Shown: positions 1,583-59,617 of the stretch, piece after piece
Layout: the number at the start of each line of letters is the position of its first letter
Position numbering within the stretch: the stretch's first letter is position 1
From: Moniliella sp. 'wahieum'
Lineage: Eukaryota
Assembly: GCA_003971905.1 (NCBI GenBank)
Contig: RSEE01000056.1
Span: 248,001-312,000, forward strand
Direction of reading: 5' to 3'
Length of the DNA: 64,000 nt
Notes under the pieces: model-generated
Databases searched by the model: none
Seen by the model: only the letters and a program-made list of their open reading frames with translations
What the model was told of the DNA's origin: nothing
Made by a program: the position numbers and the translations under genes

Positions 1583-2659
1583 GGAATAGGGAGGCTGTGG
1601 CCGTTGGACGTTGGTCGCCAATGTTAATGAGGGAGAGTGACTAGGGAGGAGTGAGGCTGAGGCGCGGAGGCCTTAGCCGAGGCACTGCATCATCCTTTGG
1701 ATGATCGATGATCGATCGCCAGTGGCGGAGAAGCGGCGTCGAGGAGCAATGGTTAAATTTTAAACGGGTAAATGCAATGGCAGACAATGGCCGCCACGCG
1801 TCGCGTGTGTCATCGATGTCATCGATCATCGATCATCGATCATCGGTGAGCATATCGGCCATCTTGATCGATCTGTGCATGTGATCATTAAAAGCGGCGC
1901 GTGATGTGCGGCGCGTGACGTGACGCGACAGGTGGCTTCTTCTCGGTTACCGCTTTCGCAAATTTATGAACGCCGCCAGGTTGCCATTTGCATTCTCAAA
2001 GCCACCAGTGTGGGCAGCACGAGGCAGCACGCAAAAGAGGCACATGTGACGCTCTGCATTTCTGGGTTGCATGACGTGTACGCTGTCCCGCAACTCGGCA
2101 ACGCACGACTCAGGCAGTACTCAGTTACTCTCAGCCTGGTCTCGGATCTCAAAGTGCAGAATCCACAATGCATGTCATGCATGATCAACAGTTGATGAGA
2201 TCGATGATCCCCACACCATGGTGTCTCTCGGCTTCGGACTTGGCCGGAGTTATGCCGACAAAAAAAAAACTCCTCGGAGCAGCCATGCACCGTGCAACAC
2301 AAGCGGCATCGCTCCGCTTTGGCCGTACGCTTTGAAATTTGATACCGCGTCGCTAGTAACTAACTAGTAACTAGTAACCAAGTAACCGGGTAACCGCCTG
2401 ATTTGCGTGCTCCTTTGCAGACGCAGGGCTGATGCTGGTCTACCCCAGCGTGCCCCCCAATATACGGTTTCTGGTGAAAAGCTTCAAGCGGCCCGTAGCT
2501 GCTGATCGATGGCCGTCGAGGGCCCCAGCCTTGGCTTGCAACTGGCTGGCACATTTGTTTTCTTCCAATCCCCCTTCCCACCAACACCCCATCTCCTCCT
2601 CCATCCACCACCCCACCGACCGTGCACATGACGAACGGCCGCCCGGCCTGCTTACCGTC

Positions 2660-4578
2660 ATGACCAACATCTCCTCTCCTTCTACCTCGCCCGTTACGGC
2701 CCCCCCAGCAGACCTTGCTATACCTGACGCTGACCGCGCCTCCCCAAGCTCCAAGACTAAGAAAAAGGGAGAACCCCACTGGCTCACCCTCGAGGAGGAG
2801 CAGGCTCTGCCCGACAACAACCGTTGGGCTGTGTTCAGCTCCCTCATGCTTTGCGTCTTCACTGCGGCCCTTGACCAGTCAATTGTTGCCCTGCCCTTCC
2901 CACCATCGCTGCCGATCTGCATGCCAATGCCGCGGGCTACTCGTACGTCTCTAGCTCCACAGGATGCCCAGGCAATCTGAAAGCGTGGACCAGCTGACAC
3001 ATCTTTGGCATAGGTGGGTTGGCACAGCCTATCTCGTAGCTGCTTCGACTCTTAACCCTATGTATGGGCGCTTGAGTGACATGGTGGGTCGCAAGCCACT
3101 CCTATTCTGTGCAATCGGTTTTTCTCTTGGGTAGTGCTCTATGCGGTTCCGCCCAATCCATCATCTGGCTCTGCTCGGCGCGAGGCGTGCAAGGCCTTGG
3201 TGGTGGTGGTATTATGTCCCTTGGCCAGATCGTATTGGCCGACCTCACTACGCTGCAAGAGCGGGGCAAATGGACGGGGCTCTATGGCTTGGTCTGGGGG
3301 TTCGCCAGCGTGATCGGGCCCCTCGCTGGTGGAGCTTTGACCACCAAGGCCAGTTGGCGTTGGTGTTTTTCATCAACCTTCCCATCTGTGGTTTGGCAGG
3401 TGCCATGCTCTTTCTTCTTGAATCTCCCTGCTCGTCCCCTCAAGTCGTTCAAGGCCGTACTGAAAGAATTTGACTTTATGGTCTCTTCCTCATCTCGGGT
3501 GGGGCAATTGTTCCTCGTTGGTTTTAGCAGTGCTGAAACCGGGACCTGGGGCGAAGGCAACACGATTGGACCCATCGTCTCGGGCGCCGTCATGATGGTC
3601 TCATTTGGATTTTGGAATGCCAACACAAAGCGGACCCCGATCATTGCGCCCCGCCTGTTCAGACTCCGAACGACCACAGTGCTGCTAGTCATGGTGGCCA
3701 TGCATGGAATCACCTTTATGAATGCGACCTACTATCTACCCAACTTTTACCAGGTCGTCAAGGGCGCCAACGCCCTCATGTCGGGGGTGTACGTCTTGCC
3801 GTACCTCGTGCTCTCCTCCCATCGTTTCCGCACTGGCTGGAGTAGCAATCAGCAAAGCCGGCGCGTACCGATTCATGCTCTACTTGGGCTTTGGAATCAT
3901 GACGCTTGGATTTGGGTTGATGTGCATGTTGACCTCCAAGAGCAGCCTTGCCGAGGACCTGATCCTCCCTGCCGTTATGGGATTAGGAGTGGGGATGTTG
4001 TTCCAAACACCTTCCATTGCGGCACAGGCGGCCATGCCCGCTGCCGAGGTAGGTTCGACGATTGCCGCCCTGATCTTTGCCGCCAATTGGCTACTACCAT
4101 GGGTATCTCGATCGGCGGGACGATTCTCAACTCGGACTGGAAACGACGGGCGGGACAGATCGAAGGTCTGCCTCCGGGGATAGACAAGCTGGTCGTGAGC
4201 AACGTGCACATACTGCGTACGTTGCAGCCACCCGAACTGTCCAAGCGGGCAATCTATGCCTACAGTGAGTCGGTCCGGCTGATCTGGATCGTCAACACAC
4301 CTCTGTGTGCAGTGGCGTTCTTGCTCTGCCTCGCGGTCAAAGGATACAGTTTCAAGCGAGCTCCCAACACTGGGGCGCAAGCCGACACCGAGGGCCAATG
4401 CTGCGGAAGATTGCTGCTGAGGACACTAAAACGGACGGCTCCGTCCAGAGAAAACGCCTCCGACACGCTTCAAAATCCTTTGTTCCCAGATGGGGAAAAG
4501 ACACAAAAAGACGACAAGATTGGCAATGAGACTCAGAGAGTCATTGTCATCCCACAACTCCCGAAACCCACTTCTTAA
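2660..4578 (+). CDS. MFS drug:H+ antiporter (DHA2-like, 14-TM type)
   Basis: WAVFSSLMLCVFTAALDQSIV, GVQGLGGGG (motif C), ERGKWTGLYGLVWGFASVIGPLAGG, ASWRWCF; intron about 2943-3013; several 1-nt frameshifts. Confidence 0.9.
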
Positions 4579-5322
4579 AGCTTGATGCTCTGATGAACTG
4601 CTGCACGCTGGAATGTCTGTTAGCTTGGCTCACAACATGCGCAGCGTAATCTTCTCAGAAATGATGTCATGGTACCTTCAACACGTAGATGCTACTATGC
4701 CCCCCCCCACTGCCTTCAACACGCTGCGGTATTTTTGTCAATGCACTCTTCATATTATTCCCTTTAACGTTTCACCGAGTTAGTGATCTTCAGTAACTGA
4801 GAGTAGTCGTAACTAGTAGCATAGATCTAAGAGGAGCTCTCAAAGCTCACAGTGAGAATTTGATCTCTTCAGTGCCTTCAGCACCAGAGTTTGTTTTGTT
4901 TCCTGTGGCCCTCTAGTCCCTCTCTTTTGATCTCGGGGCTTCAACAAGCCATTCAATCTTCGACACTTCCCACTGCCTAGGTTTGACTTTTGGATTGTTG
5001 AGCTGGGATCCTGCGTAGCATCCGCTTGTACCCATGCCGCCCGCCCTTTCAGCATGGTGTGAGTAGTCAGTAGTCAGTCGACTGCTACAGATGGTCACGG
5101 ATTGGGGAATGGGTCTGATGCATGATGCATGATGCAGGACTGACGCGTCGGAGTGAAATGTTCGATTTGCACGACGCGTCCTCCCCGCCACGCGCCACGC
5201 GACCGACATGGCCACCGGCGAAATTGAAATCATCTAATTAAGAGGATCTCGACGCGCAATGCGGCAGCCACCACCACCACCGCCAGGGCAGCCGCCACGA
5301 CCACGACCACCATCAGAACCCA

Positions 5323-14449: not shown

Positions 14450-14512
14450 CGGGCGCACATATCCCTGCAGATGAAGGAAGAGGTGGAGAGGTGGTAGGAG
14501 AGGGAGGGCTGT

Positions 14513-14592
14513 TGCGGATGCGGATGCGGATGCGGATGCGGATGCTGCGGATGGGAATAGAGATGCGGATGCGACTGCGACTGCGACTGCGG
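14513..14592. repeat. Hexamer microsatellite (GCGGAT)n/(GCGACT)n
   Basis: Directly visible tandem repeats in the 5' region of the methyltransferase-like gene. Confidence 0.85.
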
Positions 14593-15561
14593 AGGCAGAG
14601 GTGGAGGTGGTGGTGTTGGTACTTGGGTCGTGCATCATGCATCATGGCTGACGGAGCAGCTGGCGTTGGGCCGCAGCGGCTGAAATTAGAGTTCAGTAGC
14701 CGCCGTTGTTGAAACGGGAGCCGCATCGGGACACCGCACACTGCTTCCGTGCGCCGCCGCGGACGGAGACAACGGCCGTCGTAGATTGCGTCTTGCCGCC
14801 TCCAGCGCGGGGGCAGTCAGCGCAGGTCAGTATCAGTGCTCCGTCCTCAAGCCTCAAGCCTCAAGCTTCAAGCTTCCACTCGGTCCGCAGGCCGCCCCTG
14901 CCCGAGAGCTCGAGCGTTCGGGCCCTGCTGAGTGCTCCGCGGCACTCGGCCGCACTCGGAGCTGGCTGCGGCGCACGGAGGTACTGCGGAACGCGTAATG
15001 CAAGGCACAATGCATCCTGTCGCAGATTCCGCAAATCTCAGATCGATCTCAGATGCGCGCCGGCCGATTCAGAATCAGATCTCAGATTCAGATCTTCACC
15101 ACCCAGATCTCAGATCTCACAATCGCCGCTTTCCCGCTCGGCACTTCCTTCGTCGCCATCGCCGCCAGCATCACCACCACCAGTCTACGCCCTCCCCAGC
15201 TCTCCACCGTGGGATAAACGTTTATCTGAGATCTGAATCTGAGCAGCAATAATAAAACTCTGCCTCCCTCACTTAATCCGACCTAGGCCTAGCGCCTACA
15301 TGAGGCGTCACGCGTTGCGCGTCACGCGTCACGCGTCATGCTTCATCAATCATTTCATTGCCTCTCATATATTGGTCACACGGAAGCGAAGATGACGATG
15401 ATAGATGAATGGCATTGCAGAGGCGGTCCACAGACTACATGAAGTGCATGTGACGGCACTCTCACTCCAATCTCCATCGCTGGCCTCGGCCATCGATCAC
15501 CCCGATGGAGAGCGTATCACATATCAGGTGATGGAACGTATGGACAGGCTAGTACCTCTGT

Positions 15562-15716
15562 TGTGACGCCACACTGGCGTAGTGGCGCCGGTAGCCCAAG
15601 TCCGGAACCTTCTGGTTTGTTCCGTGCAATATTCCTTCCTGGCTGGCAGGAATATTCTAGCCTCTGTAGCTCATGTGCAATGCAATACACTACCAACTGC
15701 CTGCTCTGGTCTAACA
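15562..15716 (+). mobile_element. Solo LTR-like element, family A (155 bp)
   Basis: TGTGAC...CTAACA flanked by a perfect 5-bp TSD TCTGT; homologous to 48667-48828; strand is arbitrary. Confidence 0.85.
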
Positions 15717-18532
15717 TCTGTTGAACAAGAGCTGATGCACTGGTGAAAAAGATGGCCGATAATCGGGGTATAACCGGGGTAACCGGTAACCGGTAACACA
15801 GTATCGAACGGCCAAACAAGCCGCACGGGACTGAAGTTCCCTGGTCCAGCCAGAGTCTCAGGGCTTCATAGCCTCGGCCTGCCGTCACTAGCGTCACTAT
15901 AGTCACTTGACCGCACATTGAAGCTTAAAGGCTAGTCACTAGTCAGCAGCCAGCACTCAGCGAACTACTCTCAACTCTAATGGACAGCGCCAAGGCCCAA
16001 CAAGGATCATAGAAGGGGACCGTATTAGGTCAACCAAAGTGGGTAGCATTACGTTGTATGAGCGTCAGCAGAGTGGACCCCGCTTGTGCCTATATGAGAG
16101 CTTGTAAGCACCTGCAAGCTGCACACTTCTGCCCCGCTACCAATGCCCTGACCACCAATGAGAGCAGGTGCATATTGAACAGAGATTCTCTTGTGGCCCG
16201 CTTATGGTTCCTGTATATACTTACGTGCCAGGAGAGGGGAGGAAGCAGCTGATTCACCCCTTTGAGTTCATGAACTGTTCACAGAGGAGAGAAAGCCATT
16301 GAACTTGAACTGTGAACATGTGAACTGACACCGTTGTGTGACCGAGAAAAGGAGACGATATAATACGCGAGAGATTGAGCTGCGACAGACCCTCCTCACA
16401 TTGAAAGAAAGATCTCCGGCGTTCGCGCCCACGGCTCTCGAGGTAGAACCCTACACAGATAATGAGGAAAAGGGGGAGAGCGCTAAACATAGGTACTGTG
16501 ATCCTTAGATCCGCAGCTGAGGGGGGGCAACGATATAAGCATGCATACACACGCCTCGGGAAACTCCCCCAAAACCATGCGGGCCCGCATGCACTTCTTG
16601 TTCGCCCTTGAAGTGTTAAATCCATTGAAGTCACCTGGTAAACGAGAACTCCGACACACAGGTCAATAAAAGGGGCAATCAACGCATCGTCCGTATGAAT
16701 TAAGGTTGACCCACCGGATGGCTCGTGCGTTTGACCAAGGTCCCTCCGTCCCTCATTAAACCTAGGAGTGCTATTGTTTTCTCGCGGTTCTGTTTTTCCT
16801 TGTTCCGCAGAACCAGGTCAAGTGACGATGACTTGCTGCTTCTTGTCCCTTTCTGTAGGGTTGTTTGGTTTTGGCATAGAGGCCAAAACCACACATCACT
16901 GGTACGGTTGCATATCCCTCGAGGACAATTCTAGGTCTCAGTTAGGGAGGGCTGATACCAGAAGGATGTACACTCTTGTGCGCCCGGTATATGTATTTCG
17001 AGAGAGAAGACACATTGCAATGGATGTAGAGCAGACTGTGAGTGCCTCTGATACGCGCAATTAAGGAGTCAAAAGACAGTCCATGATGGACAAGCAGAGC
17101 CGCAAAGGTCATGACGTGTTCCGTTTCGACGGGCCTGAGCATGGACGCTATCGATGCTATGGCGGTCCTTGCAGTGCGTATACACGCCGCTGAAGTCGCA
17201 AGGTGTTTTCAGATGTGGGCACGATGATAGAGCCTGGAGTGGGGGCGACCAGCGGAATTGGAGCAGATACTTCCGCCAGTTTGAGTGGCCAAAGGCTCGA
17301 CAGAGCTAGACCACAAACAAGCAATTGCTAGTCAACTAGTGTCACATGTCACTCTAGTGACTAGTGACTACTGAGTCACAGTCTGAGCACTGTAGCTCCG
17401 CCTGAGCTACGCAGTGTGCTCCAGCGCACAATTGCCGACACCGGGCTGTGCAGCCAATGCGCCGAGCGCGGTGGCCGGTGGCCGGTGGAGGCCCATTGCG
17501 CATGCAGCAGGGGGGCACAGACACGCACACGGCGCAGCCAGGAATTAGTACTGTCACGCGTCACGCGTCACGTGTCACGCGCACGCATTATGCATCACAT
17601 GCATCACGCATCTTGAAGCATACCGTCACACGTCATGCATCATGGCGTCATCGCGTCATGCTTGCTGCAAGCATGCTGCAAATGACCCGTGTTTCCCTCC
17701 GCCACCGCTTTACCCACACCTCTCTCTGCCCCATTATTGCTTGCCTTCTTCGCTTCCTTCGCGGCTTGGCCGGGCCTCCGACCTATGTTCAGACCGAAGG
17801 AGGAAGGTCTATGTGGGTGGAGTAGCGGGAGGCCACACCCGGTCAAGGCCCCCGCCAAGTCCAGTTGGGGCCAGCGTCAGGTTCCGCACGGTTGCGCTCA
17901 GCAGACTCGGGTTGCGGGGAATCGCGTCTCGGCAGGCTCGAGGCCAGGGGGGCGCTGATGCTGTGTACTGACGCTGCAGAGCCCCAGTGCCCGGGAGGGG
18001 CGCTTCGAATTGCTTCTTCCGCAGCGCAGCCCAACGGGACACAGGCCGGATGCCGGGCTGATAAGCCCAACTGCCCCGCTGCCCGCAGCCAGCCACGCGT
18101 CCGCCCGTTCAGACTGCACAGGCGACACTGCCCGTCTGCGGTGCTGCGTCACGACGAAATGGCGCACGACACTGGCCTAGTGGCTGCCACCGGGATTGGG
18201 TACGTGTCGCGCGCGCCCGCACCTCACGGGTCAAATCCGTAGTTGACCGATGATGAGAGCGGACGTATATAGGGGAGCGCCCGCCGCTGCGCACCACCCA
18301 CCGCCACAGCCCGCCGCCCCCTGTCAGGATCACAGGGCCACAGCCGATCCCCTGTTTTTGAAATTGCAACGCGTGCCGGTTCTCAATAACCTCTGCTTCT
18401 CCTGAGTGACCAACAGCCCAAAGGAGGCTCAGCCCCGTGCACAGTACAACACAGTCTTGGCACCGTTGCCGTCGCCGTCGCCGTCGCCGCCGTTCTTGTC
18501 AATACTGCATCTCCACCAGACCTCATTCTCCG

Positions 18533-43301: not shown

Positions 43302-43892
43302 GGCGGTGGTGGGGGGAGGGGAAGTCGGGGGAGGAGCCAGCAAGCACGAGAAGAATAATTTGCCTTGTCGCGTTTTCTGGTCTGATTTCTGAGGCGAGGG
43401 GTTAAATGAACTGACTGAGAGCTGAAAAAAAAATGATGAAACTGCAAACGAACTATATAAAGCCAATCGGAGCAGCTTCACTAGCTCTTCACTAGTCGTC
43501 ACTAGTCATCTACTACCCACTGCAGCCTGCCCTTGTGCTCGATTTTGCCACTGTCACTTGGCCTGCAATCCTTCGATTATAGCAGTACTCTCTTCGTTCG
43601 CCCAAAGAGCCAGGGACCAGGCGGGGGACATGGCACCATTGGCTACCGTTTCCATCTCGATCGTGTCATCAGATCTCAGAACCGAGAGAGAGCAAGATGC
43701 CGACATGGGAACTATAGGACGAGGAGCTTCCCCGAAGGCGGCTTCGAAGGGAGGATGGGCGCTATGGGGGGCAAGTTAACATAGGAGGATATATGGGGTC
43801 CCGCCAGAGGAGGGAAGCAAGTTAGTGCACTGATGAACCCGTCTGGTTTTTTGTATCGCTCACCAGCAGAGTGAGGATGAACTCGGAAACCG

Positions 43893-44074
43893 TGTCATAG
43901 TTGACTGATCTCACTCCCATTTTGCCAATTTCTTCGTTCCGAGCGTCTCGCTTTTCCCTGTTCTTCCGCTTCGCACCATGTCCTCTGTTCTTGCTTCCTC
44001 CCCACGAACGAGTTGCTACATCCCTTGGACTTAGTCTCGACTCTGGTTTCGCTCGCCTTAGCCCTACTGTGACA
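43893..44074 (+). mobile_element. Solo LTR-like element, family B
   Basis: TGTCATAG...ACTGTGACA; clear similarity to the reverse complement of 48849-49028; no TSD seen. Confidence 0.75.
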
Positions 44075-45210
44075 GATGCCGAAGAAGAGCTCAGATCGTA
44101 GAGAGCATCAAATGGAAACGGAGGTCGAAGGAGATGCGAAGGCGGTGTGGCGAATCAAAGTCCTCATCCAGTTGGGGGGAACGACGCCCGAAAGCATCGC
44201 ATGCTTATCATATTATGATGCTCCTTCAAGCTTCAAGCTTCGAGCTTCAACACTCCAGCCTCGGACGGAGGCAATGCGATGCCTGGGACGCATGGATGTT
44301 GCATGACGTACAAAAATGGTCGCAAGTCAACGTTCAGTGCTCACCATGCTCGATAATGACGATGCATCGAGCAGATGGATAGTCCTGGCTCTGATGGGCA
44401 GAGGCAAAAGGCGGAGGAAAAGCCGATACAGAGGCGGCAGCGGGAGAAAAAGGTCAGTGAATTGACTTGGCACAACCCGCTCATAGCCTGAGGCCTGGGC
44501 CAGATGCCATCGAGGGCGGTGGAGTCGCATTAACACTAGTGGTGGTGGTTGATGGTGGTGGTTGTGTAGACTTGGGCCAACGAACGACGCCTGCAGAGAA
44601 CTCATCAACAGGCCACACAACCGCGCTCGGACTTGAAGGACAACATAGCAAGCGAGAAAAACCCTGCTTTCTTCGTGGCATCCCTCCGGCCCGGCTTGTC
44701 GTTCCTTCCGGATTGCGCGCGGCGGTTGGGAAGGCCAGTTCCCCATGTCGGTGACTCTGCGAAAAGGAATCATTAATCATCGATCATCGACATCACATCC
44801 GCCATCATATTCCGCCATCCCCGCGTCTGCGCGCGCCTCCCCCGCCATAGTTCCGCGCAGGGCACAAGGCTGGGGACTCACGATAGCCTGGGGTTAACTG
44901 ACAGCCGGTAAGCCGGTACCTGGGCCGTGGAATGTGCCGTGCGGTAGAGCCCCCATCCTGACGAACAGACTGAATATGAATGGGGCCGCTTCCGCATCCG
45001 CTCGGACCCTCAACCGGCGATGCACCACGCCAAACTCAGCCGAGCCAGGCCGAGGCTCCGACGAGCCGGTGATTAGGTCGTGCGCTTTAGGCCTTAGCAT
45101 TCGCGCGCGTGATTGAGCTGTGAATGTGAGCCAGGCTGAAACCTCGTCTTACGCCATTCAGCTTCCTCCCATCCCTCACCACCCCCACCATCGCTCCGCC
45201 AAAGTCACCC

Positions 45211-46488: not shown

Positions 46489-48098
46489 CTACGCGCCATA
46501 ATTATTATACACGCCAAGCGCGATCCTTCGCGGTGGCCAGCAAACGACTGTAAACCCGGATAGGAGAACAACAAGAGATACACCGCCAGCCATCATGGGG
46601 CTTTGGAAGCCGGTCGTTTCTGCATCATCGCCACGCGATTTTTCGCGGCTTGGTCCGACTCGGGGCAAGGTCGGAGGCGATGGATCGAACTTGGAAGGGG
46701 ACATGGGTTGGGCCGAACCAAGAAAGACATTCAAGTCGGTAGCGTTCAACGGCTGGGGAGACTTGGATGGACGCGATTGTGCGCGGAAGATCGGGGGGAG
46801 GGGGGATAGGTCGCGCCTCGCGCTCCGCTAGGAGAGTGTGGAGCGCCACCTCGTCAGACCCAGGCTGGGAGGAGAGGGGTGGGTCCACTCTTGCCTCGAC
46901 CGAGGTTTACGCCTGCGTGGGGTGCCGCGTGAGCTGCGGCCCCCGTGTTTGCCGATTCGTCGGGCTTGCGCATCTTGGTATTCAACTTGGGCAGAGCATA
47001 GTTTACACTTGAGCGCTGACGCAGAGACCGGCTCCTTCGCCCCCCCGCCTCCGCCAGTGGGGAGGTTGGTTCCCTCTCTTCCTGTGGAGGGATTGACTCA
47101 TTCTCCTGTGGCCCAAAGGGCGGCGGATCTGACGGTGTGACGCGGGACTTGCGCCGCGGTTTGGGTACGGGCGTGCCTGGCCCAGCTGTTGCCGGTGCGG
47201 GCTCAAGCCTCGGTCAGGCGACTGGTGCCGCTTCATTGTCCTTCGTGATGAGTCGGCCAGATTGTCAATTGAAGGGGGGTCTTGCGTTTCATGGCACGAG
47301 AGCCTGAGATAAACGTCAGTATGCGCTTGTAGAAAGATGTTTAACACGTACCGGAGGCCGAGGCAACACGTTCTGGGCAGGTGGAGGCACCGGCTGGGGA
47401 GGTGAAGCATTGGCTGGATAGGTGGAGACAGCAGCTGGGCGGGGGAATAAGTGGCTGTGCATCATCGGCGAGTGGTTGTGCATCTTCGGCAGCCTCCTGT
47501 AGATAGGAGAGAGACGAGAGCTCCACTGGAATTCGAGCGAAGGATCCATATCGATCTCGGTTTCGGCATTTGAGGTTCTCGGCTCTTCCTCCGCGTTAAT
47601 GGAGCATCGTTCCGCATTTCATGGGGGGAAGAGGCGACAGGCTCCTCGGGCGACTCGACCAAGGTACCTAGTTCCGGAGGGAAATGATATTCTGCCGCAC
47701 GCCACCTGGAAGCGTACGGCCAACAAGAGAAATGCGCGGACAGTGTTCGCCTCTTCAGGCTCAGAGTCGGGGAGAGGAGCGGTGGCGAGGGCATCGTTGA
47801 TCGCCGCGCTGGCCCGCGCGACGGCCGCAAGAGCGCGGCGAGCCTGTTGCAGCTGGGCAAGGAGGCGTGTGTTCTGGATTTGAAGCTCAATCAGCTGGGC
47901 ATCGCGCTCCAGCACCTGCTTCTGAAGTTCCTCGCCCTGAACGATGTGGAAGGCATTGCTGGCGATCAGCTCGCGGTTTTGGGCAGTGTGCTTGCGCTTG
48001 AAGGCACTCAGGTCCGCCAACACGTTCTCCAGCGCAGCGGCTGCCATGGCCGCGTCGGATGCGCCGGGGCCCATGCTGCGGCGTGTGACGCGCATCAT
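46489..48098 (-). CDS. SGO1: Shugoshin
   Basis: N-terminal coiled coil FKRKHTAQNRELIASN; SGO motif RSLRQRSSVNYALPKLNTKMRKPD (about 46960-47035); 3' end uncertain. Confidence 0.85.
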
Positions 48099-48666
48099 AG
48101 CAACAGGACCGGCTGGGCACGGCAGCGAGGCGGGAGATGGCGGAGTGGGTTGGTCTGCGCAGCCGCATCGGGCCGTGGCGACGCGAATGTTGCTCTGCCT
48201 CGCTTCGGCCGCGCCGGGCACGTGACCTGCCACGCGCGTGTTGTGGAAACTTTCTGCCAGGCCCACGTGACAGGCACGTGATGCTACCCCTTGTTCAACG
48301 TTCACGCGGTTCACGCGCCGTCAGATCTTCTCGGACTTGCCTCCCCAGCCCCCCAGCCTCCCCTCGATCTGATCGGTGGACAGATCGACACCCACACCAA
48401 ACGCTCATCAACTGATCGCAGCAGTGTTTGCAAAGTGCCGTGGTCTGTTGGACAGCTCTCATCCAGTGTGCTGGGTTCCATTGTTCTTTGGATGTGTTAT
48501 TTCGTCCGGACTGGTGTTGCATTGTATAGTAGCGTGTGCGAATATGGCGATGTCTCACTGAAGATGGGCTCTGTGGGCTTCTACTGGTGGCCAACACTTC
48601 CTTCAAATCAGTTGTCTAGAGGAACACGTGTCGTCCCTCCTGCTAGAATGATGATAAAGGGACTAA

Positions 48667-48828
48667 TGTGACGCACTATGGGGTTCGCGCCTGTAGCCCA
48701 AGCGTGGAACCTTCCGGTTCATTCCCTCCAATATTCCTTCCTGGAGGGCAGGAATATTCTCTAGTCTCTGTAGCTCATCAGTGTGCAATACAATACACCA
48801 TCACCTGCCTGCCCTCTGGTCTTCTACA
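48667..48828 (+). mobile_element. Solo LTR-like element, family A (162 bp)
   Basis: TGTGAC...TCTACA flanked by a perfect 5-bp TSD ACTAA. Confidence 0.85.
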
Positions 48829-48848
48829 ACTAATTTACGGCTGTCACA

Positions 48849-49028
48849 TGTCACAGTCGAGGCTAAGGCGAGCGAAGCTAGAGCCGAGACTAGGCTAAGG
48901 GATGTATTGGCAATCGTTAGCGGGAAAGAAGTAGACATGTGGTGCGAAGTGGAAGAACAGGAAAAGAGCGAGACGCTCGGGACGAAGACATTGGAAATGG
49001 GAGTGAAATCAACCAAACTATTAGGACA
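48849..49028 (-). mobile_element. Solo LTR-like element, family B
   Basis: Reverse complement reads TGTCCTAATAG...CCTCGACTGTGACA; no TSD seen. Confidence 0.75.
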
Positions 49029-51120
49029 GGATTGTCATTTCCATCTATCTTCTTTGTCGCCCCGTGTTGGCTCCAAAAGTCCAACGCTACATTCCTTTTG
49101 TCAAAACGAGAACAGAAGGGCATGCGTCTTTTTTCGGAGTGGACACTTGTTCCATCAACGTTCAACCCCGCACTCCATTTCTCTTGCCTAGCTTGCGGGC
49201 GCAGTTGCGCGGCAATATGGTGCTTTCTCCAAAAGCTTTTCAAACTTCCCTTTCCTCCACAGGACCAGCTTTCTCAGCTCACAGCAGAACGCAGCTCCGC
49301 CAATGCTCACGCGCATTGACACTGTTCACTCCAACCTTCAACACCAAGCGCGACTTGAATGCAGAAGTTCAACGACGTTCATTTGCCTGTGTTGCGTCAG
49401 GAAAAAAGGTCATGGGTTACATGGCTTGTGGAGGTCAATCCTTCTGACGCCCCCATCCAGGCTGAATAGCGCAGGCTCAAGCACATACACTTTGGCTAAC
49501 ATGTAACACGGAAGACCGTGGGCTGGATTCTCTGTTTAGTCATCTTCTCCACTTTCTTGCGACGCCTGGTGGGTAGCCCATTGCCCATCTCCCATGATGC
49601 ATGATGCATGATGCATGACATATCCATGACTTGCGTGCATCATGACGTTTTGCATGATGCAAACCCTGCCCAAGGTGTACACGGTAGATGTGTGTTCAAC
49701 TTTGAAACGGTCAACGTGCAACGTCCAATTTCCAACTTGAAGCTTGAACGTTCATGAGCACATGGCTCAGGGTGAGGGTGAGGCTGAGGCTGCGGTAAAC
49801 CAGTAACCCGGTAACCATCGGTTTCAGTGACGTCACACGTCCGTATTCAATGGAGCAGATCGGATTCGGAAGTTTCCCCGGCTGCGCGCGGAGAGGGGGG
49901 GACACAGCCCTAGTGTTCGTCGTGTTGCGACCGAGAGCAACGCGCTCTGTGGGGGGATGATTAAGTGATTGATCCTTTGGCATGCCAGATTCGGCGACAG
50001 CATCGACATGTCCTGTACGCCCCCGGCAGAACGGTGGCGGGCATGTCGTGGATGCTCGAAGGTCGACTGCTGCAACAGTGATGATGGCTTCGATGGGCAA
50101 TGGTTACTCGGGGGCTGGCAGGTGGCTAGCACACTTCAACGCTTCATGACTAAGAATGGGTGGTCGATGGTCGATGAGCGGAATGACCACGGGGCACTAC
50201 GAAATGTGCAAGCCACACGAGGCATACGTCTCCACACCGAATACACAGGGCTGACGCTGCTGACGCGCTGGAGCTGCCAGCGCCAGCCAGGCCCCAGGGC
50301 AGCAGGCCTGGCCGCACAGCACGCTGAGCCAGGGTGGGGTTAAACGTTAATCGAGTTCAGCGTTCGTTCACCCAACTTGAACGTTCAGATCCCAGACACT
50401 GGTGCCCAGCAGCTAGCCGCTCGGGGCGACGCGCAACCAGCCGCCAGTAACTAGTAACTACTAACTCAGTTTTACTAAACCCGTGGACGTCGTTACTAAA
50501 CGCGGCTGCTCCTCGGCGGCATGCGGCGAGCGTAGCGTTAACTCCTGTTCATGCTAGAACTCCCCCCCACAGACCCCCCGATCAGCGATCCCCGCACACT
50601 GGTCGGGTGCCTGCGTGCGGATGACGTAGCGCATCCGCCGCCCCAACAGTGTGCCCGCTGTCACGCATCGGTCACCGGTGCCCCTTGCTGGGTGCACCGG
50701 AGAACACGCAGGCGCGGCGCTGCTGGTTCTCCGCGCAGGCTCGCTGCCCCCGCGGCGCGGCGGCTGCAAGCGGGAGGCAGGCTCGGCTGGGCACGGTCTG
50801 TGCTCGGCCGGGGAACAGCTGCGGTGCCTGGGCGCCCACACTGCCCCCGCGCCGCACCCCCGCGTGCACGGGCAGCACAGGCGCGCAGGCATAAGAAGGG
50901 TTGACATGCGTGCGCTCAAAGCCGCCGGCACGGCGGGTGTCGCCGTGGTTGCGCAGCGCCCTGCCCGCTGGCTGCTCCAGTGCCCCCACCCGCCACGCGG
51001 TGCTGCTGACGCTGACGCAAGACAGTGCAGAAACCTTCCTGGGTGCATGTCCGCTCTATAAAGCTCTCCGCTGCTTCCGTCGCCCTCCCGCCCCCCTACC
51101 CCCACCCCCTCTTCACCGCC

Positions 51121-52524: not shown

Positions 52525-53287
52525 AATGGTCGCCATGACCCCGGATCGGATGGGATCCCCCTCCCCTTTTTTCTAATGGCCTCTCTGTCTCTTCCCACAT
52601 GGCTCCATCTTCCTCGCCGCCTGTGTTGCGCTAGTGTTAATGCGTTTCGCTCTTCCTCTCCCTGACGGGAGGCCGTCTACACTGTATGACCTCTTTTATA
52701 CCGTGCTTGAAGCGCCAGCCTTGACCGTCTATCTGATAGCCTCGACGAAAGGAAGTAGACCCAATCAATGCTCAGACGAACTACGAGTTCGAGAGTATAG
52801 TAGCGTGCGGGGTACCGGTGGTAGTAGGCGGGAAGAGCCAAGTAGGGAATGCATTGGTCCATGCACAAAATGTTGGACCACACGTGATCGGTGACGGCGG
52901 GGCCCCACATTTCCTCACTAGGGCTTCGTCGGGCATTCCCGGGCCCCGCCGGGCCTTGCTCCCGGTTGTTGTCTTAGTACATACTTCGAACTCGACGCTC
53001 TGCGATCGTTGCGCCCCCAATGAGCGCCAAGGGCCAAGGCCCTCAGCGCCTCAGCCCCGCTTGAATCAGGGTCAGACATGCGTCCCAACATCCCAACACG
53101 GCAGACATATATTACCAGGATATAGCCCCTGGTTCCATCTACTCCGGTGCCTAATAGTACGTAACCCAAATAGCAGGACCAGCCCTGCCCCGCGTTTCTA
53201 TAGCCTGGGACGCAGCAGCCGACAATTCACAACAGGAACGCTGCTCAGGCGCTCACACTTGGATGGAGAGTTCCGGTGTAGAGAAGG

Positions 53288-53858: not shown

Positions 53859-55797
53859 CTAAAGAAGCTCCGCGCTGAGGGCAACAGCACTGAACTCCGA
53901 CTCCCGAAAGTGGAGGGAGAGCCGCGCGGCGGTAAGCACGATTTCACCATGTTCCCGTCGTTGCGGCTCGAGATCTGACGCGTGACCGCACACTGAAAAT
54001 GGAGGTGGCGAGGTGCTAGGCCTATTAGACCTTACTAGGCCTTTTATGGCAGTATGCCCTGCGTTTTTGCTGAGCCTCAGGGCTCGACCGCTACCGCCCC
54101 CCAGCCTTCCCCTGCGCCGTATCTGGGGTTGTCGCGCTCGTCTCTGCCGCCTTCTTGGAAGGCGCGCTCGGCCCCGACAGGCGACGTACCGATTGACGTT
54201 CTCGTGCGGACCCGGAGAGTAGGTCGCTTGTGCTAGCTGCTGAGCTGGACCGTGGACGGGCAAATGGGACGAGGTCCGGGCCCAAGTGGTAGTACGCTTA
54301 AATTGGACCCGGCGAAGGGGCGCTTTGGCGAGCATAGAGAGGGTGCCGTAGGCAGTGTTGGCACCGTGGCCGGTCCCGCTGTTGATGGGGTGTGGGCTGT
54401 GGGGCGACCTGCTCCTCCCAAGGACGAGGCAGGGGAAGCCAGACCGTAAGTGCTGCGCTTGGGCGGGATCAACTTGTTGCGGCGACGTTCGATGATGCCC
54501 CGTACCAAAGGCTGCCAGGAACCCTGCGGGGCACTGGTGGACTGGGTTCGGGTGACCTTGACCTTGTTGTGCACGTCGAGGTAGACGTCAAATTCATCTA
54601 CAATTTCCCTTCCGATCATCTCCTCAATCACATCTTCGAGTGTTACCACGCCCAGAGCACCACGGGGTTCGCCTGGGTACTCGGAAACGAGGAGCATGTG
54701 CGACCGACCTTGCTGAAAGTAATTGAGGCAGTCAAACAGGGTCAGTTCGGGGGGGCTTCGGGCAACCCAGCCAGCTGGAAGCGGGAGACTTGGTCTGCGT
54801 CCTCGGGATCGTAGGAGATCAGACTTTTGACCAACAACATCCCCAGCACCGCATCGGGCTTGCCGGGTTCGTGCACCGGAATGCGCGAGTAACCATGTCG
54901 GACCAACGTGCTATCCCGGCCTCGTCCAGGACGGCATCAGACGGTAAGGTAAATACATCTTCGATTGGTGTCATAATGTCCTTTAACGTCTTCTCGTTCA
55001 AGTCCAACACGGCTCGAATGATGGCCACTCGTCGTTCGTCAACGTCTCTCACCCAACGCTTGGTGCAGCGATACGAACGTTTTCAGTTCGGCTTTGCGAT
55101 AGACGGTGCCTTGCTCCTCGCCCAAGCACCAGTCGAGTAATTTGGCTGTCGGCCATGCAATTGGCGCCAGAATGATCATGACAGCATGTACCATCGGTGC
55201 ACAGTATGCGCCAATCGACAGCCCGTACCGTGCACAAATGGCCTGTGGTACAATTTCCCCGAAAATGACAATGAGCAAGGTGGAGGTTAAGACGGCGCTG
55301 AGACCACCGCCAAAGGCGGAGAGAAAAACGGGCAAAGTCTCGTTCACAATCACGTTGCCCAGCAGCAGGACAACAAGGACCCAGTGCCGGCCCTTCTCCA
55401 GCAGAGCAAGGACAACACGCGCTTCGCGCTGCTCCGACTCACTCCCACTCGTACTGAGTACTTGCAGATTAACCATATCCAGCCCCATCAGGCCCAGGGT
55501 GAGGCCAGCAAATACACCGCCTAGCAGGACAAGACCTGCAATGCTCAGTAGATTCAAGATCAGCCGGGCATTCGTTTCTTGGGAGGCAAACGTGGGTTCC
55601 CCCCCGCGAGGCTCGGGAGGACGAAGGGGGGCTTCCAAACCCCGGGAGGGGAGGGCAAGAGCAAGTAGCGGGTGGCCAGCGAGGGCGACGAAGGAGATAA
55701 GGGCATGGGCGAGGCGTGTGCGTGCAGGCGGGCCGAGTGTGCAACGGCGCTGAGAAACGGCGAGCACCGAAGGCGACTGCGAAGACAGCAGGGACAT
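53859..55797 (-). CDS. MAM3: Mam3/CNNM family (DUF21 + CBS pair) metal transporter
   Basis: [86 protein letters not shown]; ends approximate. Confidence 0.92.
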
Positions 55798-56233
55798 CCA
55801 CGGTTCACCCACGGTTGGAGTGCACGGGTAAATACGTTGCGGGCAAAGTCGGCACAGAAGATGGAGGTGCAAAAAAGGGAAGAAGGACTGGGCCTTAGGC
55901 AGTGCTGTCCGTCAGCAGAGGGTGTGACGCGGTTGCCGGCTAGACTCGACGTGACGTTAAGAAGCTGGCAGGCAGCTGGGCCGAGGTTCATCCATTTCCT
56001 TATAGTTGCGCGCCGGCGTCGCGATCGGCGCGCTCCTACAACGGCGTTCACAACTGATGTACTGACGAGAAGATAGGCTTCCCATGCCATTACTGATTGG
56101 CACTGGAAGATCCCGATGCCGATGATGACCAGCCTACTAGGTAATCCTCAGCTGCTCTGTGCAAATTTGCACTCAATGAGTACTCAGTCTGGGTACTGAA
56201 CTCAGTTACTGAGCTGTTTGTCCATGTCACTAT

Positions 56234-56274
<41 letters not shown>

Positions 56275-56432
56275 TCACCGGCGTCACATGTCACACATCA
56301 CAAGTGACAATGCCCTAGTAGTCACCACTGAGTTCAGTACACTCTGAATACTCAGACTGAGTACCTTGGCGCCCTCGTCGCTGTGGCAGCTACAACTGGC
56401 AGCGTACTCCTGCCCCCAGAACCATGCCTGAA

Positions 56433-58559
56433 TCAAAGAAGCATCCCTTAGTCTCCCCCCGCGCCTCGAGTTCAGCCCAGCGTGCATGCGCCTCCTTCAA
56501 ACGGTGCTGGACGTGGGAACGCTCCAGCATGCGTGCCACCCAGTCCATCAGCCCATCATCGTCCTCCACGACAAAGTAAGACGACAGTGCACTGAGCAAC
56601 GTCTCGAATCCACGCTTGGCCCGGGGCTGGCGGGGCGCGAGCAGCCGCGCTCTGCTGGGCATTCGTCCCATCGGAAGAGTATGTCCCACACCCCAGAGCA
56701 ACGCCAAGCCCGTCAGTAAGAGCACATCGGGTCCCAGCAACAGGTATGCGTCCCAGATCCGCAGCTGCGTCGCAAAGGGCACGGCGCCATTGAAAGGGTG
56801 ATGTACCAGCGCGTCGCGTAGCTGCTCGGTGTAATTTCCGCCTCGTCCAACGCGGCAGCCAGAGAAGGGAGGTAGGCGCGTACGAGGGTTTGGTGCACAA
56901 AAAAGAGTTGCTGGAGTCCGGGAAAGCCAGATTGGAAGGTACTGTGGAGATTGTAGTGGTCGTGCAAGCGCGTGAGCGCAGTGTAGGCAGCCAAGTCGAG
57001 GGCAGCTGGAGCAGAAAGTGGCTGCGATCAGGCCCATTCCCTGGCAGTATCCGCACGAATCGGGACAGTGCAGACTCATTGCATGCAAGACTTGAAACAG
57101 CTGGACTTGACCCTTTCCATAGCGCGTGTAGAAGGTCCCATGACCATTCATTGTCCGCGGCACGTCCAAATCGATCTGCACATCGTACCGACTCGGCACG
57201 GTTTGGGCGTGCACAAATTCTCGCTGCGCCTTTTCCTGCGTCTCACGCCCGACTGCGCCCGAGGCAGCACGACGATGGTGCTGATAATGGGTCCAATGTG
57301 TCTCCCCCCCCGACACCTGGGACTCCGCATCCGATCGCATCTTCATCCGGATCAGCAGGGGCCACACCACAGGGCGCCAAGAGTCGGGAACGCCTTTAAA
57401 CACTCGCCTCTTCACTGCCGCAGCAGAGATGCCGACTTGAATTCTACCTCGGCTGTTGATCCGACACTTTGTCTCTGCTGGGGGGTAGTGAGCATTTTTT
57501 GCCACTTGGCCGCTCGGGTGCGATCGCGCGCCAGGTGGGCCTTGTGCAGCGCCTCTCTTCTTTGCAAAATGATCCGTGCCTCCTGCTGCGCCAGCGAGCG
57601 CGGCACCAGTTCCTCATTCGACATTGGGCTCGCCGACGCTACCAATTGCAACGAGGGGCGGGGGGAGTTGGCGCCTAATCTACCATCGGACCGGATCGCC
57701 TCGAACCGAGGACGGTGCGGAAGCTTAACGAACACCCGGCTGGGCAACGCCAAGACCCGACCTGGCTCATCTTGGTCTCGGCGTCCGTCTCAAAGAAGCC
57801 GTACCGGTCCACCGCTCGCTCTTCCTCAGACTCCCTGACTGCGACGTGTTAGGAGACGGCGAGGGAGCTCGCCTCCGTTCGCGCGACGCACGGGCCGAGC
57901 GCGACCCGAGGGCAAATGCAGCAGAGAAGAGCGGACGATGCAGAGGGATCCTCAGAAATCCTGGATGTATGCGACGACGACGGCGATTGGGAAGGGAGCA
58001 GGCCTTGCCCAGGTGCGGGGGGCGTGGATGCGGGTCTGGAGCTGCGGGGGGGCTCAAGGAGGGACGTGGCGGCTGCAGCAGCTTGGGCAGGCCCACTGGA
58101 CTCGGCGTTCAGGCCTTCGCCCATGGATGACGTTGCCGGGCGCTGGAGGCGCATGGGCGGAGCCAGACCGTCGGCGCCGTCGGTGTCTGGCGCGTAGGCT
58201 GGGCGATGTGCATGTCAGAGAGCGCGGCCTGGTTGGCCCGGCGTCGTCCGGCCCACGGCAGGGGACCGGCCTTGTGGCGTGTCATCTCCTCGCCGGCCAC
58301 CCTGCCGTCGCCGGGAACGGGTGGGAGGCAAAGTACGTACGTGGCGCGGACCATGGCGCCCTCCTTGGCGCCAGGGGCGGACCAGTCGTTGGCGGAGCGC
58401 GGGAGCTGCTCCGAGGCGCGGGCCATGGCGGGGGGGCGGATGGGGACGGGGGCCGGCGGCGGCCCAGGCGAGGCGGCTGGACAGCGCGCGCGAGAGGGAG
58501 CGGGTGCGCGTCGGCGAGGGCGCAGCGCCCTTGCTTGCGGCCGGCGTGGTGGGGGCCAT
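56433..58559 (-). CDS. Rab GTPase-activating protein (TBC domain)
   Basis: VDRYGFF, RRVFKGVPDSWR, QIDLDVPRT (R finger), GYCQGM (Q finger), LRIWDAYL; start uncertain. Confidence 0.9.
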
Positions 58560-59617
58560 GCCGTGGGGCGCTGCTGGCTGCCTGCGCTGCTGCGCTCTGG
58601 CCTCGCCCGCTGCGCCACCATCCCCCCCCGAAATCGGCTGAGGTAATCGCTCCCCATCACCGCACGGCGCCAGCCCCCGCCCCCCCAGCCGCCTGTGGGC
58701 TCACGACCTGAACCGTAGACGCTCGTCGCGCAGCAGCCCGACAGCCATGTGACTGGCACGAGGTAAGCTCGTGGTGCCAGGGAGCGCGAGCGCAGGTAAC
58801 GCAGTGGAGTATGTTTGAACAGCTGATATGCACTCTCGAGCCACTCCACATGTCACAGCCGATCCTCTTCATCCCAAGGAGGCACCCCCCGGCTCCACCA
58901 AGCCCTGGTTGGAGACTATAATGGGCGATTCTGGTGGGCCATCTTTTGTACCGCATTACGTTCACAGAAGGCATCACATGCGGCTGTAGGACAATGAGAC
59001 GGTGAGGAGGCCCACGAGTGGGCTCCTGTTGTTTGGCCATTTGAGTAAGTTCCGGGGCAAGAACAATCATGCGTTTCGTTTCGTGTTGGCTCTTTCCTGT
59101 GGCGCATCTCGACATCTCAACAGTGTGCCTTTTGTCCCCGTATTCCAGCAGGAAGTTTGGCGCAAGACTGTTGGTGCTTCGATAGGTGCATCTTTTTCTG
59201 AGGATGCACTTGTGGCGAAACAGCTATATGGGCACAGGGCGCACTAATAAGCGACATTTCAGACAGTGGCCAACAGGAATCATCGGCTCCATTTTGCTTA
59301 CTGCGGTGGGGTGAAAAAGACCCGGCAGCAGTGACTAGCAATGGCAATTGTCCCTTTCAAAGGCCTGAGGGGGGCTTTCAAGATTCGCGAGGCGAGCTGT
59401 GTCGCGTGCTATGTAGCATTGAGGAGCGGCCTTGCCGATGCTAAGCGCTAATCTTCCATCCATTGCCTGAACAGCGAGCTCATCTCACATGGACCAGTAC
59501 ATCCATCTCTAGTTCCCCGCTCATTGACCATTTCCTCTTCCCTCCTTCTATACTAATGGATCTCTAAGACGGATTGGTCGACAATGTTTTCCGCAATGCA
59601 TAACGTTTTTGGTCCGC

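Follow-up and report, generated by a model that had tools for sequence, protein, structure and literature searches.

Can a single process explain why the intergenic DNA of a fungal genome is dotted with seven-base-pair units that disagree in sequence but agree in geometry? We address this question in a window of 64,000 nucleotides (64 kb) from Moniliella sp. 'wahieum' (assembly GCA_003971905.1, contig RSEE01000056.1, positions 248,001 to 312,000 of the forward strand), with all positions below counted from its first letter. An earlier note on this DNA had described tandem arrays in which the trinucleotide TNA alternates with a 4-bp palindrome whose letters change from place to place. Here we examine how these units are built, where they lie, and what could have made them. 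On balance, we lean towards reading them as excision marks of a cut-and-paste DNA transposon with a 7-bp, TNA-centred target, the element itself lying outside the window. For brevity, the units are called scars below.

The heptamer pattern and its enrichment

The heptamer pattern is real and lies far beyond chance. With dinucleotide shuffles as the chance level for heptamer counts (20 shuffles for period-7 repeats, 50 for spacers and cores, 30 for junction classes), the unit TNA-[4-bp palindrome]-TNA with the same N on both sides is found 65 times, at 51 loci, against 2.3 in shuffled sequence. Units with unlike N number 12 (5.1 in shuffles), and TNA-N4-TNA units with a non-palindromic core number 47 (35.1). 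When T.A is exchanged for A.T, C.G or G.C centres, the same pattern occurs 3, 4 and 9 times, compared with 2.1, 6.2 and 7.0 after shuffling. Among spacers of 0 to 9 nucleotides, enrichment is seen at 4 only (112 versus 37.4), and directly abutting TNA-TNA pairs, the +3 product to be expected if both overhangs of the route proposed below were lost, are not enriched (43 versus 36.4). The count against shuffled sequence that the earlier note had suggested, split by spacer and core, therefore gives a clear excess for the 4-nt spacer with a palindromic core. Fourteen of the 16 possible cores are used in same-N units, GTAC and TATA being absent.

The same signal appears as periodicity. Exact period-7 repeats with at least nine repeated bases occur 23 times, compared with 0.2 in 20 shuffles, while periods 4, 5, 8, 10 and 11 yield between 0 and 4 exact repeats and periods 6, 9 and 12 yield 9, 4 and 1; Tandem Repeats Finder likewise reports many period-7 arrays in the window. 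In 17 of the 23 long period-7 repeats the unit is a 7-bp palindrome around T.A (p about 2e-22).

All arrays cited in the earlier note were recovered at, or within a few bases of, the places it gave: TCGA at 1819-1845 and 44776-44790; CTAG at 2361-2378 and 50446-50460; TGCA at 5116-5136, 19831-19848 and 49593-49618; AGCT at 14861-14876, 33796-33813 and 44224-44241; GATC at 15075-15119; CGCG at 15318-15338 and 17553-17572; CCGG at 15778-15797 and 26965-26978; ACGT at 34027-34044 and 50339-50350; and CATG at 17340-17352 and 20101-20113. Three details needed amendment. An AGCT array had been placed at 14847-14875; AGCT does occur at 14861-14876, but 14845-14866 consists of three copies of CCTCAAG, whose core AGCC is not palindromic. 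A single GTAC unit was correctly reported, but exists only with unlike N (TGA-GTAC-TCA, 56177). Finally, the pattern had been delimited to 1702-59451; it continues to 62687.

Most cores mirror a flank

Each unit can be rewritten as yz-TNA-z'y', a 7-bp palindrome whose middle base is free, and the outer bases of this palindrome are not arbitrary. We call a flank mirrored when the 4-bp core reflects the two bases that adjoin one of the TNAs on its outer side. Of the 40 loci with a single core, 34 have at least one mirrored flank (chance 0.12): the left in 15, the right in 12, both in 7 and neither in 6. Since the core mirrors the flank, the original site need not have been palindromic; the event makes the palindrome. 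This flank rule therefore rules out a transcription-factor word, transposon-end filler or plain slippage. It also bears out the proposition that what is conserved is geometric and not a sequence, with 14 of 16 cores in use and each core dictated by its own flank.

Arrays are outnumbered by 12-nt half-events, the most frequent class, where a stretch of five bases recurs 7 positions further on. When centred on T.A, 15 of 18 such half-events fall in phases 7 and 8 of the seven possible (p = 2e-6), precisely the two phases that a hairpin model predicts. The complete 12-nt rule is matched 75 times where 0.3 matches are expected, and its one-mismatch versions 61 times against 8.4, part of the latter being array edges. 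Because exact matches stand at 75 and one-mismatch versions at 61, most scar copies appear undecayed.

Some features of the cores stand beside this rule. CATG, at 8 loci the most frequent core, is seen without exception on TG-TCA-CA or a near variant of that target. Read on the + strand, TCA loci exceed TGA loci by 28 to 13 (p = 0.03), although such a process ought to treat both strands alike. A 10-bp perfect palindrome, TGAACGTTCA, is present at 22225, 49745 and 50378. The copy at 22225 alone conforms to the flank rule, and the remaining two may be scars that have decayed or may be of another nature.

Minor junctions point to a seven-nucleotide target

If the target is written yz-TNA-wv, junctions other than the common +7 form can be sought as pairs of like TNAs spanned by the first p bases of wv+v'w' and the last q bases of z'y'+yz, with yz and wv taken from the flanking bases. 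Beyond p+q = 4, T.A centres show six +8, five +9 and one +11 junctions, whereas 30 shuffles give a mean of 0.0 for every (p,q) cell. At A.T, C.G and G.C centres the corresponding counts are 0, 1 and 2 for +8, 0, 0 and 1 for +9, and 0, 0 and 0 for +11, C.G and G.C sites being twice as numerous as T.A sites.

The +9 junctions, which start at 1808, 15883, 48300, 62414 and 62532, consist of a 7-nt nnTNAnn unit, an inverted copy of its last two bases, and the 7-nt unit again. T.A-centred cases make up 5 of the 10 patterns of +9 type in the window, while T.A sites occupy 4% of positions (p = 2e-5). The +7 junctions keep 5 + 5 nt of the target copies, and the five +9 junctions keep two full 7-nt copies; because the latter directly repeat 7 nt, we take the duplicated target to be 7 nt long, not 5. 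In the +11 junction (15036-15053) both predicted cores lie side by side. Plain retention of both 7-nt copies was considered as a major class and set aside, being found at only 2 loci.

One spacer lies outside this scheme: TCA-CTATAG-TCA, with a 6-nt palindrome, adjoins a +9 junction at 15883-15907. The window has 3 spacers of this kind where shuffled sequence has 0.6, and the overhang model gives no account of them.

A candidate route from target to scar

The route that we propose would begin with integration through a 7-nt stagger centred on T-N-A, which would leave the 7 bp of the target yz-TNA-wv on both sides of the element. On excision, the transposase would leave a perfect hairpin on each flank, its tip at the edge of the 7-bp copy. 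A putative host nuclease of Artemis or Pso2 type would then nick each hairpin 2 nt 3' of the tip, producing 4-nt self-complementary 3' overhangs, wv+v'w' from the left flank and z'y'+yz from the right. End joining would link one overhang, directly by its 3' end, to the opposite flank at its recessed 5' end while the second overhang is clipped, so that the product would be either yz-TNA-[wvv'w']-TNA-wv or yz-TNA-[z'y'yz]-TNA-wv, always 7 bp longer than the target and always with a 4-bp palindrome mirroring one flank. Trimming only 3, 2 or 0 of the four bases of the second overhang would raise the gain to 8, 9 or 11. Where the target is itself palindromic, rejoining would be seamless because both overhangs are identical and cohesive. 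Repeated visits to one site, with occasional slippage, would build the 7-bp arrays, and scars would survive outside coding sequence, where 7 extra bp are tolerated.

Were the hairpin opened k nt 3' of the tip, the net gain would be 7 bp for any k, and the spacer would reveal k. Of the +7 junctions that this route accounts for, 59 are consistent with k = 2 (or with k = 3, which leaves an identical sequence since T and A are complementary). Another 4 are consistent with no k but 0 or 1, and 3 point to k = 4 or 5, the second N in this last group being the complement of the first. In the 27 targets that could be reconstructed from a single event, the kept overhang ends in A in 2 cases against 11 for the lost overhang, and in T in 9 cases against 2 (Fisher p = 0.003), a bias in a small sample that may reflect a preference of ligation or of the nuclease.

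The features are listed here in order of position; no strand is assigned unless + or - is given, and 'mirrored' names the flank that reflects the core.

1702-1711: +7 scar, TGA, one TCGA core, both flanks mirrored
1753-1762: +7 scar, TTA, one AATT core, right mirrored
1808-1823, + strand: +9 junction, unit TGTCATC twice with inverted GA between (7-nt copy and two P bases)
1819-1842: +7 scar, TCA, three TCGA cores, right mirrored
2333-2342: +7 scar, TGA, one AATT core, left mirrored
2361-2377: +7 scar, TAA, two CTAG cores, no flank mirrored, complex neighbourhood
2383-2395: +8 junction, TAA, spacer CCGGG (4 + 1)
5062-5078: period-7 AGTAGTC, non-palindromic, central TCA; both 7-nt copies retained (k = 0)
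5116-5132: +7 scar, TGA, two TGCA cores, right mirrored
14635-14644: +7 scar, TCA, one TGCA core, both flanks mirrored
14845-14876: mixed array, CCTCAAG three times (k = 0) running into TCA-AGCT-TCA (+7, right mirrored)
15036-15053: +11 junction, TCA, GATC, GATC, TCA, flanks tc and ga; both 4-nt overhangs kept
15075-15084: +7 scar, TCA, core GATC, right mirrored
15110-15119: +7 scar, TCA, core GATC, left mirrored
15227-15236: +7 scar, TGA, core GATC, left mirrored
15322-15338: +7 scar, TCA, two CGCG cores, left mirrored
15780-15796: +7 scar, TAA, two CCGG cores, left mirrored
15883-15898, + strand: +9 junction, unit CGTCACT twice with AG between
15936-15945: +7 scar, TCA, core CTAG, left mirrored
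16313-16325: +8 junction, TGA, spacer ACATG
17342-17351: +7 scar, TCA, core CATG, left mirrored
17358-17367: +7 scar, TGA, core CTAG, both flanks mirrored
17554-17570: +7 scar, TCA, two CGCG cores, right mirrored
17633-17642: +7 scar, TCA, core TGCA, right mirrored
17648-17660: +8 junction, TCA, spacer TCGCG (1 + 4)
19837-19846: +7 scar, TGA, core TGCA, both flanks mirrored
20103-20112: +7 scar, TCA, core CATG, left mirrored
22225-22234: TGA-ACGT-TCA, second N the complement of the first, left mirrored (k = 4, putative deeper hairpin opening)
24369-24385: +7 scar, TCA, core CCGG (left mirrored), followed by TCA-CGCG-TGA (k = 4)
26966-26975: +7 scar, TAA, core CCGG, right mirrored
27159-27168: +7 scar, TCA, core CATG, right mirrored
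27271-27280: +7 scar, TCA, core CATG, left mirrored
27287-27296: TCA, core CCGG, no flank mirrored (decayed scar or chance)
27336-27348: +8 junction, TCA, spacer GGCGC
28141-28150: +7 scar, TCA, core CTAG, right mirrored
28300-28309: +7 scar, TGA, core TTAA, left mirrored
28657-28666: +7 scar, TCA, core GCGC, left mirrored
33797-33813: +7 scar, TGA, two AGCT cores, no flank mirrored
34028-34044: +7 scar, TAA, two ACGT cores, no flank mirrored
34187-34196: +7 scar, TCA, core ATAT, left mirrored
40041-40064: composite, CATG, AGCT and AGCT on one target tg-TCA-ag, each core mirroring one flank
40223-40235: +8 junction, TGA, spacer GCCGC (2 + 3: both 7-nt copies and one inverted base)
43499-43508: TCA, core CTAG, no flank mirrored
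43669-43678: +7 scar, TCA, core GATC, right mirrored
44226-44235: +7 scar, TCA, core AGCT, both flanks mirrored
44327-44336: TCA, core ACGT, no flank mirrored
44770-44786: composite, TTAA and TCGA on one target aa-TCA-tc, each core mirroring one flank
45087-45096: TTA, core GGCC, no flank mirrored
47010-47019: TGA, core GCGC, no flank mirrored
48295-48315: +7 scar, TCA, core ACGT (left mirrored), overlapping a +9 junction, GTTCACG twice with CG between
48842-48855: +7 scar, TCA, core CATG, both flanks mirrored
49155-49164: +7 scar, TCA, core ACGT, right mirrored
49497-49506: +7 scar, TAA, core CATG, right mirrored
49595-49618: +7 scar, TGA, three TGCA cores, left mirrored
49738-49747: +7 scar, TGA, core AGCT, left mirrored
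50341-50350: +7 scar, TAA, core ACGT, left mirrored
50448-50457: +7 scar, TAA, core CTAG, both flanks mirrored
53043-53055: +8 junction, TCA, spacer GCGCC
53976-53985: TGA, core CGCG, no flank mirrored
56177-56186: TGA-GTAC-TCA, right mirrored (k = 4)
56234-56274: (CACTAGC)x6, CTAG core, TNA replaced by CCA; probably a scar unit that mutated and that slippage lengthened
56284-56293: +7 scar, TCA, core CATG, right mirrored
59442-59451: +7 scar, TAA, core GCGC, left mirrored
62414-62429, + strand: +9 junction, unit CTTCACC twice with GG between
62532-62547, - strand: +9 junction, unit GGTCATC twice with GA between (read on the - strand)
62678-62687: +7 scar, TGA, core ACGT, right mirrored

Location and growth of the arrays

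Scars cluster in gene-flanking DNA, at 1.7-2.4, 14.6-16.3, 17.3-17.7, 19.8-20.1, 24.4-28.7, 33.8-34.2, 40.0-40.2, 43.5-45.1, 48.3-50.5, 56.2-56.3 and 62.4-62.7 kb, and many clusters are upstream of genes that Pfam matches allow to be oriented. The split between coding and intergenic DNA that the earlier note had advised was made with a crude partition by codon usage over a range of thresholds: coding-like DNA, with 42% of all TNA sites, has only 8 of the 51 loci (p = 5e-5). This depletion may reflect selection against frameshifts or targeted insertion. About 3% of the TNA sites in non-coding-like DNA are scarred. Perfectly palindromic targets are struck somewhat more often than other sites: among the flank-matched single loci, 7 of 34 match on both sides (1/16 expected, p = 0.004), and by our own arithmetic 7 of 124 palindromic targets carry a scar compared with 27 of ~1290 other non-coding-like sites.

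Eleven loci show a second event. A rough calculation predicts roughly 6, taking each site to be hit at a few percent and each scarred locus to offer two or three TNAs; repeated visits therefore explain much of the growth of arrays. The composites at 40041-40064 and 44770-44786 carry both of the cores that their flanks predict and must therefore have grown by separate events. For (CACTAGC)x6 at 56234-56274, which lacks TNA, slippage is needed.

The window also holds one repeat family, with four partial copies (15562-15712, 24786-24953, 43897-44074 and 48667-49021) that are 72-81% identical. It has no coding capacity and no clear ends; the longest copy is that at 48.7-49.0 kb, and the family may represent a solo long terminal repeat or a non-autonomous element. 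At 48842-48855 the longest copy reads TGTCACA twice where the inverted copy near 44066-44074 has it once, a single clean difference of +7 among several small unrelated indels, with a third copy too diverged at the equivalent place to inform. The extra 7-nt unit in one of two paralogous copies argues that scars are insertions. Elsewhere in the family, 24861-24867 reads CATTATG where two other copies read CATG (e.g. 43978-43981); here a 3-nt insertion of TNA type sits inside a 4-bp palindrome, the reverse of the scar geometry.

Weighing the explanations

The suggestion that the arrays are scars of a recurrent, symmetric cut-and-repair process has proved the best reading, and of the three agents put forward for it (topoisomerase II, meiotic breaks and a transposase hairpin) it is the transposase hairpin that fits. 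Several points nonetheless weigh against an excised transposon. No transposase Pfam domain was found in any of 230 open frames of at least 110 aa, or in any of 66 frames of 60-109 aa at 22.5-31.8 kb. No inverted-repeat element flanked by a 3-, 5-, 7-, 8- or 9-bp duplication was seen in the window, where a scan for inverted ends returned only the arrays themselves or matches at chance level, and no pair of occupied and empty alleles was found. Two metagenome scans, with the 459-aa frame at 35739-37115 and the RabGAP frame at 56393-57613 as queries, gave no relatives. The scars are also very dense (51 loci and 12 minor junctions in 64 kb), and no flank is mirrored at 6 of 40 single-core and 3 of 8 two-core loci, where ~2 would be expected by chance. 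Their products are narrower than those of Ac/Ds reporter excision in Candida, for which the available part of PMC5873905 gives 28 footprints among 128 events. The offset hairpin of hAT elements was tried and rejected, as it fits 2 junctions compared with 36 + 39 for the perfect hairpin. A TNA-centred target is absent from the text of PMC12730594 that deals with the 7-bp families hAT7 and Kyakuja, as far as that text was available ('TNA' occurs 0 times). Separately, the motif CTCACTG, a candidate element end, is not enriched in the window (7 versus 11.3 expected).

Within the transposon reading, a fuller version can be entertained only tentatively and with some doubt: an undescribed and very active basidiomycete system that would combine the 7-bp TNA-centred target with perfect hairpins of RAG/Transib kind and an Artemis-like +2 opening by the host. 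That the agent is a domesticated, host-encoded transposase and not a free element strikes us as improbable.

The strongest competitor does without a mobile element, invoking either a host nuclease that acts at TNA or a polymerase that changes strand at the T.A quasi-palindrome, runs back over two bases and then carries on, leaving a small duplication-inversion-duplication. Such a switch would account for the inverted bases. We consider it unlikely, but keep some weight on the absence of a free element because none was seen; the density and uniformity of the scars are, moreover, unusual for transposon scars. T-N-A pairs with its own inverted copy at two of three positions, and could perhaps seed a strand switch. 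Yet polymerase error should not select T.A centres so strictly, when A.T, C.G and G.C centres show nothing; a second switch would have to occur without microhomology, and the fixed two bases would go unexplained. For any version of this explanation, a direct 7-nt duplication needs a staggered step of the integration type, which a host nuclease alone would hardly yield together with hairpins in one step, and the minor classes obey the arithmetic of joining two 4-nt overhangs.

A variant of the hairpin route, with a 5-bp NNTNA duplication and two P nucleotides on one side only, gives the main +7 product and both phases of the half-events. It requires an asymmetric target, with TNA at one end, and asymmetric hairpin opening; it fails for the +9 and +11 junctions, and predicts a different 4-nt filler for 1808-1823. 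We regard it as very unlikely.

Very unlikely as an origin are ordinary heptanucleotide microsatellites made and extended by replication slippage. Arrays of three or four units do occur, as does the TNA-free (CACTAGC)x6, but slippage creates neither the two inverted bases nor the T.A rule, and periods 5, 8, 10 and 11 are not enriched. A microsatellite unit should be free of the flank rule, and 17 of the 23 long repeats instead obey the palindrome around T.A. The earlier note had the arrays amplified by slippage. As the main amplifier it is contradicted by the two composite arrays, each carrying two differing cores and each core predicted by one flank, and slippage remains a secondary amplifier only.

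Binding arrays for a dimeric transcription factor, which the earlier note had offered as its other reading, or some other selected promoter code, would suit the gene-flanking position of most scars, and cores such as ACGCGT resemble what we take to be known words. The idea is nevertheless highly implausible, given that the 14 cores in use are each set by the local flank and not by a consensus, that 12-nt half-events are the commonest form, and that the +8, +9 and +11 junctions break the 7-bp register.

Two further explanations are hardly to be entertained. Filler left by transposon ends of Tc1/mariner type, in which a TNA duplication would enclose two nucleotides from each inverted end, would make a 4-bp palindrome between two TNAs, but calls for a separate family for each of 14 cores and predicts no relation between core and flank, as against the 34 of 40 observed. 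An assembly or sequencing artefact would have to be sequence-diverse, strand-symmetric, tied to the flanks and depleted in coding-like DNA, and would have to differ by one unit between paralogous copies; we know of no platform error with such properties. Fill-in of a topoisomerase II or Spo11 stagger can be rejected, as it has the wrong length and yields no inverted bases: a 4-nt stagger is contradicted both by cores made of two flank bases and their inverted copy (34 of 40 loci) and by the 7-nt duplicated target of the five +9 junctions.

Genomic setting

The window has 57.5% G+C and short open frames, and its host is an intron-rich eukaryote, with domains spread over split frames. The Pfam domains are of housekeeping type only: MFS transporter, TBP, mitochondrial carriers, oxysterol-binding protein, pyruvate carrier, acyl-CoA thioesterase, shugoshin, citrate synthase, CNNM, RabGAP and AN1 zinc finger. 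Rfam adds three tRNA genes. At 22500-31800 lies a gene-poor stretch of ~9 kb with a G+C content of 0.49-0.51, compared with about 0.58 elsewhere in the window; within it are 8 scar loci, two of the tRNA genes and a single copy of the repeat family described above, and its open frames of at least 60 aa show zero Pfam domains.

The tRNA genes at 23472-23565 (- strand) and 37781-37877 (+ strand) stand in inverted orientation. Their exon parts are 98-100% alike and their middles differ, with 89% identity across 95 columns with 7 gaps, and the pair probably represents one tRNA whose intron has diverged. ARAGORN calls just one of the two, with an odd 4-base anticodon. The third tRNA gene lies at 24400-24485 (- strand). 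A period-6 repeat at 14513-14596, consisting of 5.5 copies of the hexamer TGCGGA followed by 3.7 copies of TGCGAC, falls within a long open frame on the - strand; it is of another kind than the scars and is probably coding.

Significance

If the transposon reading holds, this fungal genome would preserve a dense, legible record of excision through hairpins and of end joining, in which each scar would show its 7-bp target, the overhang that was kept and the trimming of the other. Such spectra normally require engineered reporters. The reading would predict an uncatalogued type of element, with a 7-bp nnTNAnn target and perfect flank hairpins, and would point to an Artemis-like preference for +2 hairpin opening in a basidiomycete. 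Were the window typical, extrapolation would suggest ten thousand or more events genome-wide, as an order of magnitude; scars would then be a main source of new promoter sequence as well as a natural, large-scale record of hairpin joining. Being gene-flanking and palindrome-creating, they may act as a steady source of promoter variation. The 12-nt rule, with its 75 matches against 0.3, offers a simple diagnostic for screening other genomes.

Comparison with known systems

Excision footprints with P nucleotides are textbook knowledge. A genome peppered with one stereotyped class of scar, from an uncatalogued combination of target and hairpin, was not found in print: a literature search, with subscription journals largely outside it, returned no account of genome-wide TNA-centred 7-bp scars, and what was consulted on Cryptococcus transposons held no footprint data. 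A search on the Ustilago heptamers that the earlier note had brought up likewise yielded nothing of relevance. A 7-bp nnTNAnn target joined to perfect flank hairpins matches no family that we were able to trace. Individual traits are nonetheless familiar, and each known system shares some of them.

Perfect flank hairpins are the mode of RAG and Transib, both of which duplicate 5 bp at the target. The even palindromes that such hairpins leave are present here, the axis of the core lying 2 nt beyond TNA. The 5-bp duplication is not, as the +9 and +11 junctions require 7 bp. As with P nucleotides in V(D)J recombination, an even palindrome is centred on the edge of the retained flank and would be processed by host end joining. 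The opening step has a close parallel in Artemis:DNA-PKcs, which, according to the available part of PMC2175297, opens perfect hairpins mostly at +2 to give 4-nt 3' inverted-repeat overhangs; such a +2 nick would yield the 4-nt self-complementary 3' overhang that appears here as the 4-bp core. Unlike V(D)J recombination, however, the window has no signal-sequence element and no lymphocyte context, and its 7-bp duplication is deduced from the junctions. Coding joints, moreover, are described in the same portion of PMC2175297 as mostly losing their P nucleotides, whereas the junctions here are far more uniform.

Hairpins on the flanks are made by hAT elements, Transib, RAG and a MULE (PMC5499845, available part). 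With hAT elements the scars share cut-and-paste movement via flank hairpins, footprints built from target copies and short inverted repeats, and a host-dependent bias; in the available text of PMC5873905, Ac/Ds scars in Candida are biased to few products. The hairpins differ in that hAT palindromes are centred on the complement of the element-adjacent base, after a nick offset by 1 nt (PMC5873905, same part). Unlike the present 7 bp, the usual hAT duplication is 8 bp, with 5, 6 or 7 bp in named subgroups. Work on Hermes reportedly shows the same offset geometry as other hAT elements. Among the hAT subgroups, the duplication inferred here equals that of hAT7 only, on the available text of PMC12730594.

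Within Basidiomycota, that text lists 7-bp duplications for hAT7 (Pucciniales) and for Kyakuja (KDZ; Laccaria and other Agaricomycotina), and the Moniliella scars agree with both in phylum and in a duplication length that here derives from the +9 junctions. No member of either family was found in the window, and in the text of PMC12730594 that was available neither hairpin chemistry nor footprints are described for them; its supplements hold consensus sequences and no target logos. Kyakuja has no terminal inverted repeats, its termini being CA..TG and its transposase of KDZ type.

PIF/Harbinger shares the dyad target in which T and A enclose an unconstrained base. PIF/Harbinger and Tourist-like elements make a TNA-type duplication of 3 bp, and their excision is reportedly mostly precise. 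That TNA/TWA duplication was considered here and set aside: the +3 class stands at 43 against 36.4, and the duplicated stretch is 7 nt. Canonical 3-bp duplications are also mentioned in the available text of PMC12730594, and the target of TcBuster is a dyad of the form nnnTAnnn (PMC3499496, available part). The footprint of Tc1/mariner elements resembles the scars in being a short, stereotyped insertion between two target copies, but its filler comes from the element, whereas here it comes from the flank. Overall, the junctions show the general traits of a hairpin footprint, namely retained target copies and inverted flank bases, the latter in 34 of 40 single-core loci and at T.A centres only.

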